From Alphaproteobacteria bacterium (GTDB taxonomy: Bacteria > Pseudomonadota > Alphaproteobacteria > SP197), in assembly GCA_965228895.1 (NCBI GenBank), contig OZ245842.1, positions 1,344,001 through 1,408,000 on the forward strand: a stretch of DNA of 64,000 nt. Reading direction: 5' to 3'. The notes below the pieces were generated by a model, which searched no databases, was not told where the DNA came from, and saw nothing but the letters and a program-made list of their open reading frames with translations. This document shows, piece after piece, positions 6,116 through 16,106 of this stretch (the stretch's first letter is position 1; each line of letters begins with the position of its first letter). Both the position numbers and the translations under genes were made by a program.

Positions 6116-6886
6116 ATGGCTATGCCAACGCGGCGCATCGATCTCAGCAACCAACGGGTTCTGGTCACGGGCGGCGGTGGTGGCATGGGCCGCGACATCG
6201 CGCGAACTTTCGCGGTCTGGGGCGCGCGGGTCGCCGTGTGTGATCTGACGTTGGAGGGCGCCCGGTCCACCTTGACCGTGATCAACGACGTCGGCGGTGA
6301 CGGCTTTGCGGCGGCCATGGACGTGGCCGACGAGCAGTCAGTGGCTGCCGGTGTTGCAGCGTGCTGGGATGCGCTGGGCGGGTTTGACCTTCTGGTCAAT
6401 AACGCCGGTGTTCTCACCGTCTCCGACGTCGTCGACATGCCATTGAAAGACTGGCGCTTTGTGCTCGACGTCAATGCGACGGGTGTTTTCCTTGTCAGCC
6501 GGGAAGTCGCCCGCATGATGATCCAACAGGCGACGCCGGCATCGATTATCTCGACGTCGTCGATCTCGGGAAAGAGCGGCGATGCCGGATTGGCCCATTA
6601 CTGCGCGTCAAAGTTCGCGGTGGTTGGGTTCACCCAGGCGCTGGCGCGCGAACTTGCCGTGCACGACATTCTGGTCAACGCGATCTGTCCGGGCATTGTC
6701 GAAACGACAATGATGGACAACCTGACCCGTGATGCCCAAACCTCGGTCGAGGCCTATGTCAGCGAGCAGTTGATCAAACGCTCCCAAACGCCCGAGGACA
6801 TGGCCTACGCGATGGCGTTCCTGCACACGTCGCGGGCAATGACCGGGCAGGCTCTGAACGTCGACGGGGGCACGGTCTTCAATTGA
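6116..6886 (+). CDS. Short-chain dehydrogenase/reductase
   Basis: TGGGGGMG, NNAG, YCASK; divergent from the GlxA regulator; GGGAG RBS. Confidence 0.9.
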   Translation: MAMPTRRIDLSNQRVLVTGGGGGMGRDIARTFAVWGARVAVCDLTLEGARSTLTVINDVGGDGFAAAMDVADEQSVAAGVAACWDALGGFDLLVNNAGVLTVSDVVDMPLKDWRFVLDVNATGVFLVSREVARMMIQQATPASIISTSSISGKSGDAGLAHYCASKFAVVGFTQALARELAVHDILVNAICPGIVETTMMDNLTRDAQTSVEAYVSEQLIKRSQTPEDMAYAMAFLHTSRAMTGQALNVDGGTVFN

Positions 6887-7904: not shown

Positions 7905-10900
7905 ATGAACGTGGTCGACCGACAGTCGGAACATCTCCTGCCGGTGATGAACGGCGAGCGCAAGGTCGTCACGGTCATCTTTGCCGATATCGTAAGGTCG
8001 TCTGAGCTTGTCGCCGGGCACGACCCGGAAGACGCCAACGACCATCTGCTTCCAATTCTGCAGGCCATGATCGATGCCGTGCATCGCTTCGGCGGCACGG
8101 TCAACCAGATCCTGGGCGATGGTATTATGGCCGTGTTTGGCGCGCCGATGGCCCAGGAGGACCACGCGCTGCGCGCCTGCCTGGCCGCGCAGGTGATGCA
8201 GATGATGGCCACCCATGCCTTGCGCAACAGCGTCTGCGACGCCCTACGCAACCATCGCATCAGGATCGGCATCAGCTCCGGTGACGTGGTGGCGCAGACT
8301 CTGAAGGGCGACTTCCACACCGAGTACCGCATTGTCGGCGAGACGGTTTATCGTGCGTCACGGCTTGAGAACGCCGCGACACCAGGCAGCATTTTTGTCT
8401 GTCGCGACACCGTTCGCCTGTCGCGCGGCGCGGTCGACGCCGAGGCGGTCGGCGCCGTAACGCTGTCGACCGAGGCGCGCGCCATCGAAGCCATGCGGCT
8501 GAAGGCCGTTGCGACCTCTCACAACCTGTCTGACCACACCGCAGAGACCGGCGCTCCAGCATTGGTTGGCCGCCAGGACGAGCTGGCCGACTTAAGAAAT
8601 TGTCTGGCCGAAACCGCGACGGGTTCGGGAACGTCGATCGTGGTGACATCCGACGCCGGCGTTGGCAAGTCCAGGATTATCCGCGAGCTGGTCGACGATT
8701 TGTCTGAACGTGACTATCGCGTCGTCGAATGCGAGTTGCACCCCACGGGCCTGGCGCGCCCCAGCGGTACCATTACGCGCGTCCTGCGCGGTGTGCTCGG
8801 TTTGCTTGCCGACGACCGGGAAGCGCTGGAGTTCCGTCTCGATCAGATTGATCTGCGTGATCCCATCTTGCGTGTCGCGCTGTTGGATGTGCTTGGCCAT
8901 CCGGTCGAGCATCCGGGTTGGGTCGAAAGCTCGCCGTCCGAAAAACTTCGTTTGACCGTCGATGCGGCAACGTCGGTCATCATCGACGTGGCGCGCGACA
9001 AGCCGGTCGTCATCGTGCTTGAGGATGTTCACTGGGCCGATACCCAGTCCCGCGCGTTTGCCAAAGAATTGTCCGGCCGTGTTTCGGATGCCGCCGTCTT
9101 GATGCTCGCGACGTCGCGCATTTGGAGCGAGCCTGTTTGGTCCGAATGGCCCGGCGTACGCGAATTGCGCCTTGAGTCGTTGATGCCCGATCAGACCGAG
9201 CGTTTGCTCGATCGCATGCTCGGCGTTCGCAAGGAGCTCGCCCATCTGAAACAGCGCCTGGTCGACATGACCCAGGGCGTCCCGTTCTTTATTGTCGAGT
9301 GCGTCCGGAGCCTTAAGGAAACCGGCGCTTTGCAAGGTCAGTTCGGCAGTTATCGACTGATGGTGCCGATGACCGAGATCAGCATTCCGGCAACGGTCCA
9401 CGGCTTGCTGGCCGCGCGGATCGACACGCTTCCGGCAGCCGACCGTTATGTCCTGCTTTGTGCCGCGGTCGTCGGTCAAAGTTTCGACGTCGGCCTGTTG
9501 CAGGAGATTACGGGTCGCAAGTCGCAGGACATCTTGATGCAGCTGAACCGGCTGCAGGCAGCGGGTTTCGTGAACCGCACCCGCATCGTGCCCAACCTAG
9601 AATTCAGTTTCCAACATGCGCTGACGCATGACGTCGCCTACGAGACGTTGCTGAAGAGCCTGCGCCGGGATTTGCACGGTCTGCTGATGAACGCGCTGGA
9701 GCACCGGCGCTCGGATCAAATGCCAGGCCGGATCGAACTGCTGGCCCATCACGCGTTCCGTGCTCAAGATTGGCCGAAGAGTGTCGTCTATAGTCGCCTT
9801 GCCGGTCGTGAGATGCTGACGGCATCGCGCAATGCGGAGGCCGGTCAGTGTTTTGAGCAGGGATTAAGCTCTCTCGACCAACTCGAGGACACCTCGCGCA
9901 ACGCGGAACGTCGCGTCGATTTCCACATCGAGCTGATTCAGGCGTACTTCCCGCTCGGTCAAGGCGACCGCGTTAAAACGCATATCGATCGTGCCGAAGA
10001 GATCGCTGAGAAGCTGTCCGACTACCGCCGACTTGGCCACCTCGCGTCATACAAAAGCCTTTACCTGTGGTCGGTCGGCAAGGTCGCCAGGGCGATCTCC
10101 ACCGGAAAGTCGGCGCTTGGGTTGGCGCGCAAGCGCGGCGACCGGGATCTCGAAATCCACGTTGCCGGTCGTTTAGGGGCATTGTTGGTCGATCGCGGCG
10201 ATTTCGACGCGGCTTGTGCCCTGTTGGAACGAGCGATCAGTTTGATCCCGCCCGAAATGAACCACAGACGGTTCGGGCTGTTGCCGGTAGCGTCGGTGAC
10301 CACGTTGGCGTCGCTGTCGCGTGGCTTGGCCGAGTTGGGCGATTTCAAAAAGGCGCTGCAGTACGGCGACCAGGCGATCCAGATCGCCGATGAGGTTGGA
10401 CACGGTTTCAGCCAGATTTACGCCAATCTTTGGGTCGGCAACGCCTTGATCAAAAAAGGCGATTTCGAGCGAAGCATTCCCCCGCTGGAACGTTGCCTTG
10501 CGCTTTGTGAAAAGACCGAACTTGATTTGCTTTATCCGCGCAGCAAAAGTTCGCTCGGTTATGCCTACATGCATGTCGGCCGAAACGATGAGGCATCGGC
10601 CTTGTTGACCGAAGCCATCGATGACGCAGGCAACGGGCCGACACGCTGGAACAACGCCCAGCAGCTTGCTTGGTATGCCGAATTCCTTCTGCGCAACGGT
10701 AACGTCGAGGAAGCGAGCAAATGCGCGGTACAGGCGCTGGAGCTTGCCGTTGAGTCGGGCGAGAAGGCGTCGGAGGCATGGTCGCTGCTGCTTTTGGGCC
10801 AGGTCCAGAATTCACTGTGTGCTCAGCCAGAGCCGACGGCCCATCGCTATCTGACAAAAGCCTGGGACATGGCGGTTGCGCACCGCATGGGGCCTCTGGC

Positions 10901-11081
10901 TGCCCACTGCCATCGTGGCCTAGCGGACTTTTACATGCGTCACAACGCGCCGCAGAAAGCCCATGCGGAGATTGATGCTGCACTGAGCTATTACGGCCGG
11001 CACGGCATGGACACCTGGTTGCGTTATGCGCGCATGGACCTGCAACTCGTCGGCGACCTTCGCGCCGAGCGCGTTCACTAG
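7905..11081 (+). CDS. Class III adenylate/guanylate cyclase domain + STAND-type P-loop ATPase + TPR repeats
   Basis: VTVIFADI and LGDGIMAVFGAP (two metal Asp), RIGISSG; LVGRQDEL, Walker A SDAGVGKS, Walker B VIVLEDVHWAD, GVPFFIVE; helical TPR-like C-terminal part. Confidence 0.9.
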   Translation: MNVVDRQSEHLLPVMNGERKVVTVIFADIVRSSELVAGHDPEDANDHLLPILQAMIDAVHRFGGTVNQILGDGIMAVFGAPMAQEDHALRACLAAQVMQMMATHALRNSVCDALRNHRIRIGISSGDVVAQTLKGDFHTEYRIVGETVYRASRLENAATPGSIFVCRDTVRLSRGAVDAEAVGAVTLSTEARAIEAMRLKAVATSHNLSDHTAETGAPALVGRQDELADLRNCLAETATGSGTSIVVTSDAGVGKSRIIRELVDDLSERDYRVVECELHPTGLARPSGTITRVLRGVLGLLADDREALEFRLDQIDLRDPILRVALLDVLGHPVEHPGWVESSPSEKLRLTVDAATSVIIDVARDKPVVIVLEDVHWADTQSRAFAKELSGRVSDAAVLMLATSRIWSEPVWSEWPGVRELRLESLMPDQTERLLDRMLGVRKELAHLKQRLVDMTQGVPFFIVECVRSLKETGALQGQFGSYRLMVPMTEISIPATVHGLLAARIDTLPAADRYVLLCAAVVGQSFDVGLLQEITGRKSQDILMQLNRLQAAGFVNRTRIVPNLEFSFQHALTHDVAYETLLKSLRRDLHGLLMNALEHRRSDQMPGRIELLAHHAFRAQDWPKSVVYSRLAGREMLTASRNAEAGQCFEQGLSSLDQLEDTSRNAERRVDFHIELIQAYFPLGQGDRVKTHIDRAEEIAEKLSDYRRLGHLASYKSLYLWSVGKVARAISTGKSALGLARKRGDRDLEIHVAGRLGALLVDRGDFDAACALLERAISLIPPEMNHRRFGLLPVASVTTLASLSRGLAELGDFKKALQYGDQAIQIADEVGHGFSQIYANLWVGNALIKKGDFERSIPPLERCLALCEKTELDLLYPRSKSSLGYAYMHVGRNDEASALLTEAIDDAGNGPTRWNNAQQLAWYAEFLLRNGNVEEASKCAVQALELAVESGEKASEAWSLLLLGQVQNSLCAQPEPTAHRYLTKAWDMAVAHRMGPLAAHCHRGLADFYMRHNAPQKAHAEIDAALSYYGRHGMDTWLRYARMDLQLVGDLRAERVH

Positions 11082-11297
11082 ACCGGGCAATCCGGCATTG
11101 CCGGGGGCCTGATCGGACGGTTTTCTCCTTTTTAGTGTGATTCGCTTGCGCGTTGCTCGTAACGCGTGCTGCTGGCTGCACGCCGTCGCTGATCGAGGAC
11201 GGTGCTTCCCGACGCCGACTTCCCGATGGCATCGATGCGCCATCAGGCGCGCAACGCCTAAGCTTTTCTGAAATTATTCGAACTTGAACCTGGTCGA

Positions 11298-11313
11298 TGT
11301 GAACCAATTCACA
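11298..11313. promoter_or_regulatory. CRP/FNR-family operator, perfect TGTGA-N6-TCACA
   Basis: TGTGAACCAATTCACA, 71 bp upstream of the precursor ATG; centre 11305.5 equals -41.5 if TGnTAGCCC (11332-11340) is the extended -10. Confidence 0.75.
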
Positions 11314-11384
11314 GACGGCCAAGACCCCCGTTGGTAGCCCTGATCTTGTCTGTGGCTTGGCAGAAAGTGATCAGGAGGTTGCTA

Positions 11385-12185
11385 ATGGCAACTACGCTTA
11401 GTGAGGGCACACTGCTGCGTGGCCCTGATGGTATCCTGTACCGTGTCCATGCTGGACACGCGATGGAGGTCCACGAGCCCCGTGCTGGTGAAACTTCCGA
11501 TGTTACCTTCAACAGTGAGGAACGCGAATGGTCTGCAGCGGACCATGCCTCGTCCCGCCTAGCGATCGACCCGGGCGACAGTGCGTCGTCGCGTTTGGCG
11601 ATTGATCCGGGTGACCATGCGTCGTCCCGTCTGGCTATCGAACCGTCGGAAGACTATTCGATGGCCGCCGGCGACAGCGCATCGTCGCGTCTCGCGATCG
11701 ATCCGGGCGATCATGCATCGTCGCGCTTGGCGATTGATCCGGGTGACCATGCGTCGTCCCGTCTGGCTATCGAACCGTCGGAAGACTATTCGATGGCCGC
11801 CGGCGACAGCGCATCGTCGCGTCTCGCGATCGATCCGGGCGATCATGCATCGTCGCGCTTGGCGATTGATCCGGGTGACTATGCGTCGTCCCGTCTGGCT
11901 ATCGAACCGTCGGAAGACTATTCGATGGCCGCCGGCGACAGCGCATCGTCGCGTCTCGCGATCGATCCGGGCGATCATGCATCGTCGCGCTTGGCGATTG
12001 ATCCGGGTGACTATGCGTCGTCCCGTCTGGCTATCGAACCGTCGGAAGACTATTCGATGGCCGCCGGCGACAGCGCGTCGTCGCGTCTCGCGATCGATCC
12101 GGGCGATCATGCATCGTCGCGTTTGGCGATTGATCCAGGTGACCATGCCTCGTCGCGTCTGGCCATCGAGCCTGGCCAGATCTGA
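11385..12185 (+). CDS. Putative multi-core RiPP (thioamitide) precursor, 266 aa: 52-aa leader plus 15 core repeats
   Basis: AGGAGG at 11373-11378 before ATG 11385; repeats vary mostly at synonymous positions in this frame; directly upstream of ycaO-tfuA. Confidence 0.85.
   Translation: MATTLSEGTLLRGPDGILYRVHAGHAMEVHEPRAGETSDVTFNSEEREWSAADHASSRLAIDPGDSASSRLAIDPGDHASSRLAIEPSEDYSMAAGDSASSRLAIDPGDHASSRLAIDPGDHASSRLAIEPSEDYSMAAGDSASSRLAIDPGDHASSRLAIDPGDYASSRLAIEPSEDYSMAAGDSASSRLAIDPGDHASSRLAIDPGDYASSRLAIEPSEDYSMAAGDSASSRLAIDPGDHASSRLAIDPGDHASSRLAIEPGQI
11541..12176 (+). repeat. Hierarchical coding tandem repeat: ~36-bp units (x15) inside a 132-bp period
   Basis: Spacer TCGGAAGACTATTCGATGGCCGCCGGC recurs at 11646, 11778, 11910 and 12042. 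Confidence 0.97.
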
Positions 12186-12350
12186 GGTAGGCTGACGTGA
12201 ACGCCGCCGGTCATGTGGGTGGTAACAACGTGTGGGCAGGCGCCGTGGTCTTGTTGAGCCCGGTGTATCAAGCCCGCCAGTCCGTCCATGTGCCGGCGGC
12301 GTTCTTTGAGTCATGCAAAACCGACAAGCCGAGAGAACTTGAGAGCTTTT

Positions 12351-13628
12351 ATGCGCGCATCAAATTCGATGCTGGCGGCCGCCCCAGGCAACCCGCTGGC
12401 AGGTATCGCATCGGTCCAGAAGGCATACGATGCCGGCACGCACCGGCTGATTGCACCACAGGAAACCGTCGAACGCATCAAACCCTTGATGCCGGTGATG
12501 GGGATAACACGTATAGCCAACGTTACAGGACTGGATACTATTGGTATTCCGGTAGTAATGGTGAGCCGACCAAATTCCAGGTCGATTTCGGTGGCACAGG
12601 GCAAGGGCGCATCACTTGACGCGGCAAAGGCATCCGGTCTGATGGAATCAGTTGAGAGCTACCACGCCGAGCGCATCTCTCTGCCCCTTATGTTGGGTAG
12701 CTACGAGGACATTCGCTACAACCACAACGTAGTCGATGTCGACCGGCTGCCACACCTGACGGACAGTCTCTACACACCAAATACCCAACTCTTGTGGATA
12801 GAGGGACGCGATCTGATATCCGATCAGGGGGTATGGGTACCCTATGAGATGGTCCACCTGGACTATACGCTCCCGCTGCCCACCGGGCACGGGTGCTTCG
12901 TGCCCAGTTCCAACGGTTTGGCGTCGGGCAACCATCTGTTCGAGGCCATCTCGCACGGGATCTCTGAGGTCGTCGAACGCGACGCCGTCACCTTGTGGCA
13001 TCTGCTCGACTCTGAAGAACAGGAGCGCACGCGTGTCAATCTGGACACGGTCGATGATCCCGTTTGTCGCGAGTTGCTGGAGAAGTACGCCGATGCCGGC
13101 GTGTTGGTCGCGGTATGGGAGGTCACATCGGACATCGGCATGCCCGCCTTCCTGTGCCGCATCCTTCAGGAAGCACCGCCACCCTATAACGATTACCGGC
13201 CGGCCAGTGGCATGGGCTGTCACCCGGCGCGCCATATCGCTTTGTCGCGTGCCCTAACCGAAGCGGCGCAGAGCCGACTGACATTCATCTCCGGCGCCCG
13301 CGATGATCTCTGGCGTTCGGACTATGACAGTTTCCTGGACCCCGAAACCCACAAGATATGGCTGTCCTACATGGAGTCGACCTGGGAAGGCCGTAACTTC
13401 CAGGACATGCCGACGTTTATCGGCGGTTCGTTTGAAGAGGATATCTCCTGGGAGGTCGACCGGCTTGTCGACGTCGGCGTGACGCAGGTCGTCGCGGTTG
13501 ATCTGACAAAGTCGGAGTTCGGCATCCCTGTCGTGCGGGTGATCATCCCGGGTCTGGAGGGTATGGACCATTCACCGAAGTATGTACCCGGCGAGCGGGC
13601 CCGCAAGTTGCTGAAGAGGCGCACATGA
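12351..13628 (+). CDS. ycaO: YcaO-family ATP-dependent backbone-modifying enzyme, TfuA-associated type (start 12351 or 12369)
   Basis: GTHR...P.ET, GITRIANVTGLD.IGIP, QGKG....AKASGLMESVE, SNGLASGN..EVVERD, ALTEAAQSR, IPVVRVIIPGLE; no Pro-rich PxP C-terminus. Confidence 0.95.
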   Translation: MRASNSMLAAAPGNPLAGIASVQKAYDAGTHRLIAPQETVERIKPLMPVMGITRIANVTGLDTIGIPVVMVSRPNSRSISVAQGKGASLDAAKASGLMESVESYHAERISLPLMLGSYEDIRYNHNVVDVDRLPHLTDSLYTPNTQLLWIEGRDLISDQGVWVPYEMVHLDYTLPLPTGHGCFVPSSNGLASGNHLFEAISHGISEVVERDAVTLWHLLDSEEQERTRVNLDTVDDPVCRELLEKYADAGVLVAVWEVTSDIGMPAFLCRILQEAPPPYNDYRPASGMGCHPARHIALSRALTEAAQSRLTFISGARDDLWRSDYDSFLDPETHKIWLSYMESTWEGRNFQDMPTFIGGSFEEDISWEVDRLVDVGVTQVVAVDLTKSEFGIPVVRVIIPGLEGMDHSPKYVPGERARKLLKRRT

Positions 13629-14368
13629 GCGTGTACGTTTTCATCGGGCCTTCGATCACCTTGGAGGACGCCCGCAAGGAGATCAAAGCGACGTTCATGC
13701 CGCCGGTGTCCGAGGGCGACATCACGCGTTTGGTCGCGAACGAAAAACCGCGCGCTATCGGTATCATTGACGGCTATTTCGAGAACGTTCCCAGTGTCTG
13801 GCACAAGGAAATCCTGTTCGCGATGACCCATGGCGTCCACGTCTATGGCGCCTCCAGCATGGGCGCCCTTCGGGCGGCGGAACTCTATCCGTTCGGCATG
13901 GAAGGCGTCGGCGCCGTCTTCGAGGCCTATCGTGACGGCCTGATCGAAGACGATGACGAGGTGGCCGTCATCCACGGTCCCGCTGAACTCGGCTACCCCG
14001 CGCTGTCGGAAGCCATGGTCAACATTCGCCGCACGCTCTCGGATGCCCTGCACCATCATGTGATCGGCCAGGCCACCTATCAGCGCCTGGAGGAACTGGC
14101 CAAGACGCTGTCCTATAAGGATCGCAGCTACGCCAACCTGTTCGAGCTGGCGCGTGAGTACGCCATCGACCGTCGTGAAGTCGACGCCTTTGCCTTCTGG
14201 CTGCAGACCGGACGGGCGGACCAAAAGCGCGATGATGCGCTATTGCTGTTGCGCACGATGCGCCATCAGCTGAAGGCTGATACGCCGCCGAAAGACGTGC
14301 GTTATCACTTCGAATACACGACCTTGTGGGACAGAGCCATCCGTACCGCTGCCCAAGACACCACCTAG
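13625..14368 (+). CDS. tfuA: TfuA-like protein (YcaO partner for thioamide formation)
   Basis: VFIGPS, PPV..GDI, IIDGYF..VPSVWHKEI, GASSMGALRAAEL, DDDEVAV.HGP; ATGA overlap with the ycaO stop. Confidence 0.95.
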   Translation: MSVYVFIGPSITLEDARKEIKATFMPPVSEGDITRLVANEKPRAIGIIDGYFENVPSVWHKEILFAMTHGVHVYGASSMGALRAAELYPFGMEGVGAVFEAYRDGLIEDDDEVAVIHGPAELGYPALSEAMVNIRRTLSDALHHHVIGQATYQRLEELAKTLSYKDRSYANLFELAREYAIDRREVDAFAFWLQTGRADQKRDDALLLLRTMRHQLKADTPPKDVRYHFEYTTLWDRAIRTAAQDTT

Positions 14369-14586
14369 AATCCCCAACACCCGCGTTGGCCATTGACCGA
14401 CCGCTGCGTTTCACGGACTCGCATAGGCCGGTGCAATGCATGTCCTATCTAAATTGCCGGTGCGTCTGTCTGCATCCGGTTGTGCTTGTTCGTTGGCAGG
14501 CGCCATGACACTCTGAAAATGCGGTACATGGGGGGACGGTCAGCGGACCACGGCGTGGTCTAAGAGACGATCGTGCATCCCCGGCG

Positions 14587-15321
14587 GTGGATGTGGACGA
14601 CGGCGTGACTGATCGTGTGACGACGAGAGTTGATCTCGATGCGCTCCGGCGCAACGAGCTGCTTGGCCAGCTCGAGCCCGACGAGATGGACGAATTTTTG
14701 GGACTGGCCAGCATTCAGACCTATCCCGCCGACCGTTTGATCTTTCAGAAGGCCGATCCTGGCGACCGTCTGTTCGCAATCGTCAGTGGGCGGGTCGGGA
14801 TTACGACGGAATCGGAGTCCGGAAAGTCCATTCTTCTGAACATGCTGAAGGCGGGTGACGTGCTTGGCGAAATTGCATTGTTGGATGGCAAGCCACGCAC
14901 CGCCAACGCGGTTGCCTTGGACGACAGCGAACTCCTCTGTGTCGAACGCTCGGATTTTCTGGCGTTCCTGGAGCGCCACCCCCGTCTTGCCATTCGGCTG
15001 ATGGGTGTTCTGTGCGACCGGTTGCGCTGGACCAGCGACATCATCGAGGACACGATGTTCCTGGACATTCCCCATCGTCTGGCGAAGCGGCTGATGGTTT
15101 TGAGCGATCAATACGGGAGAAAGACCGACGACGGCCTCTTGATCGATCTGCGCTTGTCCCAGGAGAGCTTGGGCCAGATGCTGGGCGCGACCAGAGAGAG
15201 TATCAACAAGGGGCTGAAGCTCCTGGAGCACAAAGGTCTGATCGAGAGCACCGGCGGCTATATCCGCGTTACCGATATGGACGCGCTGAGAGACTTCGGC
15301 GGCTTCGACGAGGCTGGCTGA
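14587..15321 (+). CDS. Crp/Fnr-family transcriptional regulator with cNMP-binding domain (start uncertain by ~10 codons)
   Basis: Phosphate-binding cassette LGEIALLDGKPRTANA; HTH LSQESLGQMLGATRESINKGL. Confidence 0.92.
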   Translation: MDVDDGVTDRVTTRVDLDALRRNELLGQLEPDEMDEFLGLASIQTYPADRLIFQKADPGDRLFAIVSGRVGITTESESGKSILLNMLKAGDVLGEIALLDGKPRTANAVALDDSELLCVERSDFLAFLERHPRLAIRLMGVLCDRLRWTSDIIEDTMFLDIPHRLAKRLMVLSDQYGRKTDDGLLIDLRLSQESLGQMLGATRESINKGLKLLEHKGLIESTGGYIRVTDMDALRDFGGFDEAG

Positions 15322-15344
15322 GAGCGGTGTCGGGGGCGTCAACG

Positions 15345-16106
15345 ATGACCGACAGCTTGGATCGTGAGATACGAGCGCTGCGTTCGCTGCTGGACGACAG
15401 CGCCGAAACCGTGATGTTTACCGGCGCCGGTATCAGCACCGAATCGGGTATTCCCGACTTCCGCAGCCCCGGTGGTATCTGGACCAAGTTCAAACCCATT
15501 CAGTTTGACGACTTCATGGCATCCGAAGACGCGCGCCGCGAATACTGGCGGCGGCACTTCGACCTGCGCGGTGAACTCGGCAGCGCCGAACCGAACCGTG
15601 GCCACCGCGCCGTCGCCCATCTCGTGCGCCAGGGCAAGGTCAGCCATGTGATTACCCAGAACATCGACGGGTTGCACCAGCTATCCGGCGTGCCGGAAAG
15701 CAAGGTGGTCGAACTGCACGGCAACGCGACCTATGCAGAGTGTCTGGACTGCGCGGAGTCCTATGAGCTCGATCATGTCCGTGCTGTGTTCGAGCCGGAC
15801 GAGACCTTGCCGATGTGCGAGATCTGCGGTGGCATCGTGAAGCTCGCGACGATTTCTTTCGGTCAGGCGATGCCGGAAGGTCAAATGGCGAGGGCGGAGC
15901 ATGCCACGCTGTCGGCCGACCTCTTCATCGTCCTCGGCTCATCGCTCGTCGTGTTCCCGGCCGCAGGTTTCCCGATGCTTGCCAAGCGGAATGGGGCGGC
16001 CCTGGTGATCGTCAACCGCGAAGCCACCGACCTCGACGAAATCGCCGACCTCGTCATTCACGGCGAGATTGGACCCACCATGGGCGCGACAACGGGCGTC
16101 AACTAG
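15345..16106 (+). CDS. Sir2-family NAD-dependent protein deacylase
   Basis: TGAGISTESGIPDFRS, TQNIDGLH, ELHGN, CLDC/CEIC zinc site, GSSL.VFPAA. Confidence 0.93.
   Translation: MTDSLDREIRALRSLLDDSAETVMFTGAGISTESGIPDFRSPGGIWTKFKPIQFDDFMASEDARREYWRRHFDLRGELGSAEPNRGHRAVAHLVRQGKVSHVITQNIDGLHQLSGVPESKVVELHGNATYAECLDCAESYELDHVRAVFEPDETLPMCEICGGIVKLATISFGQAMPEGQMARAEHATLSADLFIVLGSSLVVFPAAGFPMLAKRNGAALVIVNREATDLDEIADLVIHGEIGPTMGATTGVN

Follow-up and report, generated by a model that had tools for sequence, protein, structure and literature searches.

In Rhodospirillum centenum a CRP-type box, TGTGAAGCAGTTCACA, lies ahead of the genes RC1_3785-gcyB-gcyC-cgrA; it has been footprinted and is positive in chromatin immunoprecipitation sequencing (ChIP-seq), and it is needed for 60-80-fold activation by CgrA, a Crp homologue that binds cyclic GMP (cGMP) (Dong et al. 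2015, PMC4681086, which credits the footprint to Roychowdhury et al. 2015). Deletion of cgrA makes gcyB and gcyC drop 60-80-fold, the divergent small open reading frame (ORF) RC1_3784 is likewise CgrA-activated, so that both directions are activated, and a cyclic-nucleotide feed-forward circuit has been proposed for CgrA (PMC4681086). Here we describe a box of the same type, TGTGAACCAATTCACA, in a 64,000 nt stretch of the genome of an Alphaproteobacteria bacterium (contig OZ245842.1, positions 1,344,001 to 1,408,000, called the window below), where it precedes genes for a precursor peptide, a YcaO protein, a TfuA-like protein and a Crp-family regulator. We hold with good confidence that the Crp protein encoded in the cluster, a relative of CgrA, has this box as its operator and would activate precursor-ycaO-tfuA from a class II position in response to a nucleotide made by the cyclase encoded just upstream.

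CgrA prefers cGMP, binding its target DNA with a dissociation constant of 61 nM in the presence of cGMP and 1795 nM in that of cyclic AMP (cAMP), and its pocket has RT where that of Escherichia coli CAP has RS (PMC10187061). The products of gcyB and gcyC have been described as cyclase subunits without catalytic function, and that of RC1_3785 as hypothetical (PMC4681086), and Azospirillum brasilense encodes cGMP-production genes and a CgrA homologue (PMC6159551); the A. brasilense locus in our collection (L029) has the cassette plus the box. Elsewhere, gcyA, gcyB, gcyC, cgrA and RC1_3785 are not mentioned in PMC4340629, and CgrA appears in PMC7117780 in the reference list only. The switch type is already published, as a CgrA-type autoregulatory site, and the window box adds a member to it. 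What the open-access literature searched does not state is that this switch governs genes resembling a ribosomally synthesised and post-translationally modified peptide (RiPP) unit, with a conserved precursor, YcaO and TfuA; in that literature we found nothing that links gcyB with YcaO, TfuA with cGMP or TfuA with Azospirillum, nothing relevant, among the papers listed, on the cyclase fusion family TIGR03903, and no description of a Crp-box switch of YcaO-TfuA clusters.

The box and its cluster

The box and the genes around it are the following (positions are those of the window).

7905-11081, plus strand: class III nucleotidyl cyclase-AAA_16 (STAND-type) ATPase-TPR protein, 1058 aa, the presumed source of the cyclic nucleotide
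11298-11313, no strand assigned: CRP/CgrA-type box TGTGAACCAATTCACA, 10 of 10 TGTGA-N6-TCACA positions
11332-11340, plus strand: extended -10-like TGgTAGCCC (TGGTAGCCC), in which TAGCCC starts 21 nt after the box; start of transcription predicted at about 11347
11385-12185, plus strand: precursor peptide gene, 266 aa, a 52-aa leader with RGPDGILY and then 15 cores D[HSY]ASSRLAI[DE]P
12351-13628, plus strand: YcaO of the TfuA-associated type (Pfam YcaO, 2.5e-83; TIGR03266, 1.2e-74, below cut-off)
13625-14368, plus strand: TfuA-like protein (Pfam TfuA, 3.8e-48; NF033432, 1.2e-65, just under cut-off), its start overlapping the ycaO stop
14587-15321, plus strand: Crp/Fnr-family regulator of the CgrA type, 244 aa (Pfam cNMP_binding, 8.3e-25; HTH_Crp_2, 2.8e-17)

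All the relevant genes, from the cyclase to crp, are on the plus strand, and the box is intergenic, lying inside the 303-nt gap 3' of the cyclase gene and 71 nt before the precursor ATG. The original prediction had read TGTGA-ACCAAT-TCACA at 11298-11313, and this is exactly the sequence there (TGTGA at 11298-11302, ACCAAT at 11303-11308 and TCACA at 11309-11313). It is the single perfect match to TGTGA-N6-TCACA in the 64,000 bases, both strands counted, for a chance expectation of 0.03 (100 dinucleotide-preserving shuffles). Looser versions are not enriched in the window: with up to two mismatches there are 4 matches where 19.3 are expected, and the GTGA-N6-TCAC core with up to one mismatch occurs 25 times where 25.5 are expected. 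The perfect match being unique and the looser versions not enriched, the window has one outstanding site and no scatter of weak ones, and we infer no wider regulon from it, because the looser patterns are at or below chance.

Set beside the R. centenum site, the 16-bp palindrome of the window is identical at 10/10 consensus positions and in the TGTGAA/TTCACA arms, and differs in its spacer, ACCAAT in the window and AGCAGT in R. centenum. In both clusters the box stands before the first ORF, which is followed by two genes and then the Crp homologue, and the window Crp shares with CgrA the GE, RT and TS nucleotide-pocket signatures. CgrA is longer than CAP in its N-terminal part (PMC10187061), and the window Crp has 244 aa. 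The first ORF, however, is a 266-aa, 15-core precursor gene in the window and a small ORF in R. centenum, and the window lacks a divergent small ORF or RHH_4 gene of the kind that RC1_3784 represents. The window lineage groups with relatives of the Kiloniellales-like kind, its YcaO having 57-62% identity to those of Azospirillum-named loci, whereas R. centenum is in the same clade as Azospirillum and Niveispirillum. In R. centenum, as in the Azospirillum and Niveispirillum loci, a divergent small ORF is followed by a second small ORF, two genes and crp, and we assume that gcyB and gcyC encode YcaO (DUF181) and TfuA domain proteins. Because the R. centenum box fits the family consensus (below) and the gene order agrees, the window cluster is reasonably viewed as a putative diverged member of the gcy-cgrA group.

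Conservation and promoter geometry of the box

An alignment of YcaO homologues was used to search a genome collection, the best 80 of 405 relatives were kept, and the gene content of these 80 loci was mapped by tblastn. Loci with at least 700 bp of upstream sequence were taken as assessable, which gave 46 of the 50 with a Crp gene directly after tfuA and 29 of the 30 without an adjacent Crp gene. The order cyclase, small ORF, ycaO, tfuA, crp recurs in Kiloniellales-like metagenome-assembled genomes, in Azospirillum, in Niveispirillum and in other Rhodospirillales. The box is present in 44 of the 46 assessable clusters in which a Crp gene comes straight after tfuA (in 37 of these as a perfect match and in 7 with a single mismatch; the other 2 clusters lack it), and, at up to one mismatch, in 0 of the 29 assessable loci without an adjacent Crp gene; the latter include two loci (L056 and L073) whose Crp homologue sits elsewhere in the locus. 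Of the two Crp-bearing exceptions, L002 has a symmetric variant, AGTGAAGTAGTTCACT, and in L004 an IS3-type transposase (L004 1-950) interrupts or replaces the 5' part of ycaO. The remaining 4 of the 50 Crp-bearing loci are too short to assess, and one of these (L027) still has a perfect box. There is never more than one perfect box in a locus, in up to 19 kb, and it is always upstream of ycaO.

Grouped by Crp identity, the loci with a box form 11 clusters at 70% and 28 at 90%, and they have 23 different spacers. In a box-anchored alignment there is hardly any variation at the ten consensus positions or at the inner A/T pair (TGTGAA...TTCACA), and the flanks carry about 0 bits; the family consensus is TGTGAAGnnCTTCACA. 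Half-sites that are kept despite complete turnover of spacer and flanks, and lost where there is no Crp gene, are what one would expect of a cognate operator. The original prediction had matched the box to the cluster's own Crp and had named conservation in homologous loci beforehand as a check; the co-occurrence of box and gene (44/46 with the Crp gene, 0/29 without) agrees with both, and the Arg-Glu pair of the Crp recognition helix described below agrees with the first.

These counts bear directly on two other explanations of the box. One is that the palindrome is a chance product without regulatory function, which would fit with the perfect match that 3 of the 100 window shuffles gave; a sequence that is conserved in the same place over 11 Crp clusters (70% identity) with 23 spacers, and that is never seen where the Crp gene is missing, is hardly of such origin, and we regard chance as excluded by this conservation. 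The other is that some global regulator of the CRP family, with its gene elsewhere in the genome, reads the box, such as a classical cAMP-CRP, and that the neighbouring Crp has other targets. The box does match the E. coli-type consensus perfectly and so could be bound by many CRP homologues, and our view is limited to 64 kb out of the roughly 5.5 Mb of the contig. We nevertheless think a global regulator improbable, given the presence of the box in nearly all clusters with an adjacent Crp and in none of those without, the matching R-E helix of that adjacent Crp, the finding of no other Crp-family frame in the 64-kb window, and the binding of the R. centenum box by the adjacent CgrA (PMC4681086).

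Downstream of the box the spacing to a -10-like element is also kept. The two best-conserved -10 positions, written as xAnnnT, follow the box at a gap of 22 nt in 28 of 45 distinct sequence contexts and at a gap of 21 nt in 10, and are found at 52 other offsets in 0-8 of the 45. If transcription starts 7 nt after the hexamer, gaps of 21 and 22 nt place the box centre at -41.5 and -42.5, respectively, so that 38/45 contexts would have class II geometry, with start sites predicted from the position of the hexamer. In the closest relatives ggTA stands at 21 nt (cggTAGATA in L001, tggTATGAA in L045 and, after the second of two boxes, at 6400, cggTAAGTA in L047), and because this ggTA is common to them the window TGgTAGCCC is the homologous -10-like element. 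The original prediction had proposed TGgTAGCCC as an extended -10: the spacing arithmetic is correct, a gap of 21 nt placing the box centre at -41.5 for a +1 near 11347, and relatives have a homologous element, whereas the hexamer itself is weak and the start remains a predicted one. A consensus scan predicted no sigma-70 -35/-10 pair between 11100 and 11385, the -35 position is covered by the box, and the distance from box to precursor ATG (median 70 nt, n=40 loci) fits a promoter immediately upstream of the gene.

A Crp dimer at this place might instead repress, blocking RNA polymerase at the -35 until the nucleotide signal changes, since a site at -35 can do either and the sign of regulation is absent from sequence features. 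We consider repression unlikely to about the same degree as reading by a global CRP: there is no recognisable -35/-10 promoter that could work without an activator, loss of CgrA in R. centenum lowers the downstream genes 60-80-fold (PMC4681086), and a class II spacing to a weak -10 that is fixed in 38/45 contexts is what activation requires. Activation by the cluster's Crp is thus our preferred reading. Two further elements lie in the gap between the cyclase and precursor genes.

11245-11259, plus strand: terminator-like hairpin plus T-rich tail, 3' of the cyclase stop and 5' of the box (consensus scan, weak motif)
11373-11378, plus strand: Shine-Dalgarno AGGAGG, 6 nt before the precursor ATG (11385)

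The hairpin suggests that the precursor operon may have a promoter of its own.

The regulator, the cyclase and the proposed circuit

The window Crp has the recognition helix GATRESINKGL, the nucleotide pocket GEIALLDGKPRTA (GE..RT) and a CAP-like Thr-Ser pair in the C-helix. Its best relatives of solved structure are GlxR of Corynebacterium glutamicum, the Mycobacterium tuberculosis Crp (Rv3676), Clr of Sinorhizobium meliloti and E. coli CAP. All of the 45 cassette Crps have the Arg-Glu pair, 43/45 have R-E-x-x-N-K and 43/45 the GE..RT pocket. The original prediction had pointed to a RESINK helix with this Arg-Glu pair and to an intact cyclic-nucleotide pocket, and alignment to the solved relatives and to the 45 cassette Crps confirms both. 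The first, second and last positions of such a helix contact TGTGA, and the last may be Lys (PMC10187061).

GlxR and Rv3676 are the top solved matches (E about 6e-34 to 9e-34), and they share the GE..PRT pocket and, in their RETVNK helix, R-E-x-x-N-K; the window helix can be aligned to the GlxR helix GASRETVNKAL. Both regulators bind TGTGA-N6-TCACA. They differ from the window Crp in being actinobacterial global cAMP regulators with no linked cyclase-YcaO-TfuA cassette. Clr (7pza, 2.8e-32) is, like the window protein, an alphaproteobacterial Crp, and is activated by both cGMP and cAMP, but it has the helix RPKVNR and sites of the TGTT-N8-AACA type (PMC10187061), whereas the window Crp keeps the Glu and is paired with TGTGA. 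The arrangement in the window resembles that of the E. coli CAP class II promoters in its TGTGA-N6-TCACA site, its distance of ~21 nt from site to -10-like hexamer, its lack of a -35 hexamer and its Arg-Glu recognition (PMC10187061). It differs from CAP in that the regulator is a dedicated local one beside its target and not a global one, in its helix (RESINK in place of RETVGR), in its pocket (RT in place of RS), in its greater length of 244 aa and, probably, in having cGMP as its ligand. The RT pocket is found in the cAMP-binding Rv3676 as well (PMC10187061), so it is not specific to CgrA.

The presumed source of the nucleotide matches Guanylate_cyc (5.9e-19), AAA_16 (3.9e-21) and several TPR families of Pfam, and matches the NCBIfam model TIGR03903, "TOMM system kinase/cyclase fusion protein", at 5.7e-91 and 306 bits. 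It thus resembles the TIGR03903 systems, which are associated with TOMM/YcaO, in having a related cyclase-AAA-TPR protein beside YcaO, and differs from them in scoring 306 bits where the cut-off is 705. A homologue of this cyclase lies upstream of ycaO in most of the Crp-bearing loci. The closest solved structure, 2w01, is labelled adenylate cyclase in the PDB; we take it to be the Synechocystis guanylyl cyclase Cya2. We note that the cassette cyclases form an unusual subgroup, in which Gln replaces the base-specifying Lys/Glu in 35/41 and Arg is at the second position in most, and in which His stands in place of the catalytic Asn, the window enzyme having Tyr there (domain 7905-8534).

In the circuit that we propose, the neighbouring cyclase-AAA-TPR protein would make a cyclic nucleotide, the nucleotide-loaded Crp dimer would bind TGTGAACCAATTCACA, and Crp bound at ~-41.5 would recruit RNA polymerase to a promoter that has a weak extended -10 alone; recruitment of the class II kind is suggested because the site overlaps the -35 region of that promoter. 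The precursor-ycaO-tfuA transcript would then be switched on, and probable read-through into crp would make the circuit self-reinforcing. The 218-nt gap between tfuA and crp contains no terminator-like motif, and ahead of crp is the following element.

14493-14520, plus strand: sigma-70-like motif TTGGCA-16-GAAAAT, 9/12 positions, with as many hits as chance would give

This motif could be a basal crp promoter, on weak evidence. Since there is no terminator-like motif between tfuA and crp and the crp promoter motif is weak, basal crp expression together with induced read-through is plausible, as proposed for cgrA. The original prediction had drawn the line from cyclase through nucleotide-bound Crp to activation of precursor-ycaO-tfuA, and at the level of sequence it is supported; the same type of circuit has been shown in R. 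centenum with cGMP and CgrA, where the small ORF, the next two genes and crp itself are all activated (PMC4681086, PMC10187061). By this analogy cGMP is probably a likelier ligand than cAMP in the window cluster, an identity that is unreadable from sequence.

Several observations weigh against activation by the neighbouring Crp and its cyclase as we have set it out. The window hexamer TAGCCC is weak and lacks T at position 6, and in the 22-nt register of most relatives the window has AGCCCT, which lacks A at position 2. The related loci share ancestry, so the conservation counts are not numbers of independent events. The base-specifying positions of the window cyclase are Q68 and R142, which are neither the K/D pair of ATP-using nor the E/C-or-G pair of GTP-using enzymes, and because of this Gln and Arg the nucleotide is unpredictable from the cyclase. 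The autoregulation of crp is uncertain, because crp has the promoter-like motif of its own and the 218-nt gap before it. R. centenum is not named among the 120 Crp homologues listed, the 120 A. brasilense YcaO homologues listed or the best 80 of 405 loci, so that the equation of gcyB with ycaO, gcyC with tfuA and cgrA with the window crp is a putative one, based on gene order, the box and family relationship. Lastly, the strongest conservation in the flanks of the box is on the minus strand, where TA lies 21-22 nt from the box in 39/45 contexts and serves a divergent RHH_4 (ribbon-helix-helix) gene in most relatives.

This last point could mean that the box mainly serves a divergent minus-strand promoter, that of the RHH_4 gene in Azospirillum and Niveispirillum and of RC1_3784 in R. 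centenum, and is a leftover in the window, which does have TAATTT at the corresponding place. The RHH_4 gene is confirmed in the relatives, and RC1_3784 is CgrA-activated (PMC4681086). The window, however, has neither an RHH gene nor any other credible ORF on the minus strand, so a divergent role is not the whole story there; moreover its box remains a perfect match, the -10-like signal of the plus strand is conserved too, and in R. centenum both directions are activated (PMC4681086). We therefore judge a mainly divergent role very unlikely, and retain plus-strand activation of the precursor operon. A profile built from 30 RHH ORFs gave no match in the 64-kb window at E values of 10 or less. 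The one candidate ORF on the minus strand is antisense to the cyclase gene. The minus-strand TAATTT is part of an AT-rich stretch that also has some likeness to the box.

11267-11282, no strand assigned: AT-rich stretch TCTGAAATTATTCGAA, a possible weak second CRP-like site, with no function assigned

It mismatches the CRP consensus at 3/10 positions, its centre is 31 bp upstream of that of the main box, and its -10-like TAATTT on the minus strand is 21 nt from the box, the mirror image of the class II distance; it could be a relic minus-strand -10 or a weak second Crp site. True tandem boxes occur in two relatives, 32 bp apart in L047 (6368 and 6400) and 37 bp apart in L045 (8266 and 8303).

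The divergent RHH_4 gene encodes a protein of ~100 aa and lies just upstream of the box, for example at L029 8033-8338, L033 8119-8454 and L082 4713-5000 (all on the minus strand); in Azospirillum and Niveispirillum it is probably the counterpart of R. centenum RC1_3784. In Azospirillum lipoferum 4B crp is followed by a second RHH gene, and an IS5 transposase (L082 3558-4106) lies between the cyclase and RHH genes. Two Kiloniellales-like loci, L003 and L047, have upstream of the box another small divergent minus-strand ORF, with the motif LIGAAAEA, that is not RHH-like and was not found in the window. Seven loci of the A. lipoferum type (L009, L010, L013, L015, L017, L018 and L025) have cTTCGAATGTGAAGAGTT ~18-28 nt after the box, and this sequence includes a further TGTGAAG half-site that overlaps the -10-like position.

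The putative peptide unit

The 266-aa precursor is homologous to small ORFs at the same place in 39 other loci. Its gene repeats with a 132-nt period (4.7 copies, 96% matches), and the residues invariant in the family are R12, G13, D15, G16 and L18 of the leader and D65 and R70 of the core (D-x-x-x-x-R). The precursor has no matching family in Pfam or NCBIfam and no entry in the ESM Atlas, and Rfam gave no match at E<=1 across 10900-12450. The small ORF of Azospirillum and Niveispirillum encodes a 53-78-aa precursor with the leader RGADGRLY. We note that the Azospirillum precursors have one core, DHEA(A/G)RxxITPG, and those of Kiloniellales-like relatives many (DHGAARYVIEPG, DADAGRWAITP). The ycaO ORF is open from 12288, and its homologues (425 aa) begin at M22, that is, at 12351. 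Like the known YcaO-TfuA thioamide RiPP clusters, the window has YcaO and TfuA adjoining a short or repetitive precursor; thioamide precursors with repeated cores are found in actinomycetes (the thiovarsolins). YcaO, TfuA and the adjoining precursor thus fit a YcaO-TfuA thioamidation RiPP cluster, whose thioamide product is a predicted one.

The genes most strongly activated by CgrA look RiPP-like (precursor, YcaO and TfuA) and not like cyclase subunits, a question that the cyst-development literature consulted does not address; if this reading is right, a modified peptide would lie in the core of the cGMP developmental switch. The R. centenum cGMP-CgrA circuit, studied in a single species, would reach at least 11 diverged lineages when these are counted as Crp clusters at 70% identity, marine Kiloniellales-like bacteria among them. 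The box would also be a concrete on-switch for an otherwise silent peptide cluster, in that the right cyclic nucleotide, or over-expression of Crp, should fire the operon.

More tentatively, and with the odds in our view against it, the peptide and cGMP might form a feedback loop, in which the peptide modified by YcaO-TfuA is the ligand that the TPR-STAND cyclase needs for making cGMP, and cGMP-Crp induces more peptide through the box. GcyB and GcyC would then be the peptide-modifying YcaO-TfuA pair and the small first ORF would encode their substrate, and a precursor with 15 cores could gather several cyclase monomers. Because the cassette has no transporter or protease, the modified peptide may act inside the cell. 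Were such a loop real, cyst-type development throughout the Azospirillum-like bacteria would be triggered in part by a thioamide peptide of ribosomal origin.

A gene for a Sir2-family NAD-dependent deacylase (15339-16106) lies 3' of crp; it is absent from the Azospirillum loci and present in the closest relative, L004. One more element lies inside the operon, between the precursor gene and ycaO.

12199-12304, plus strand: long stable hairpin with a U-rich tail, -76.7 kcal/mol, z = -3.6, 0/200 shuffles as stable

The consensus scan gave a terminator-like match within this hairpin, at 12282-12299. The hairpin may serve for attenuation or for stabilising the mRNA, and may set the ratio of precursor to enzyme mRNA.

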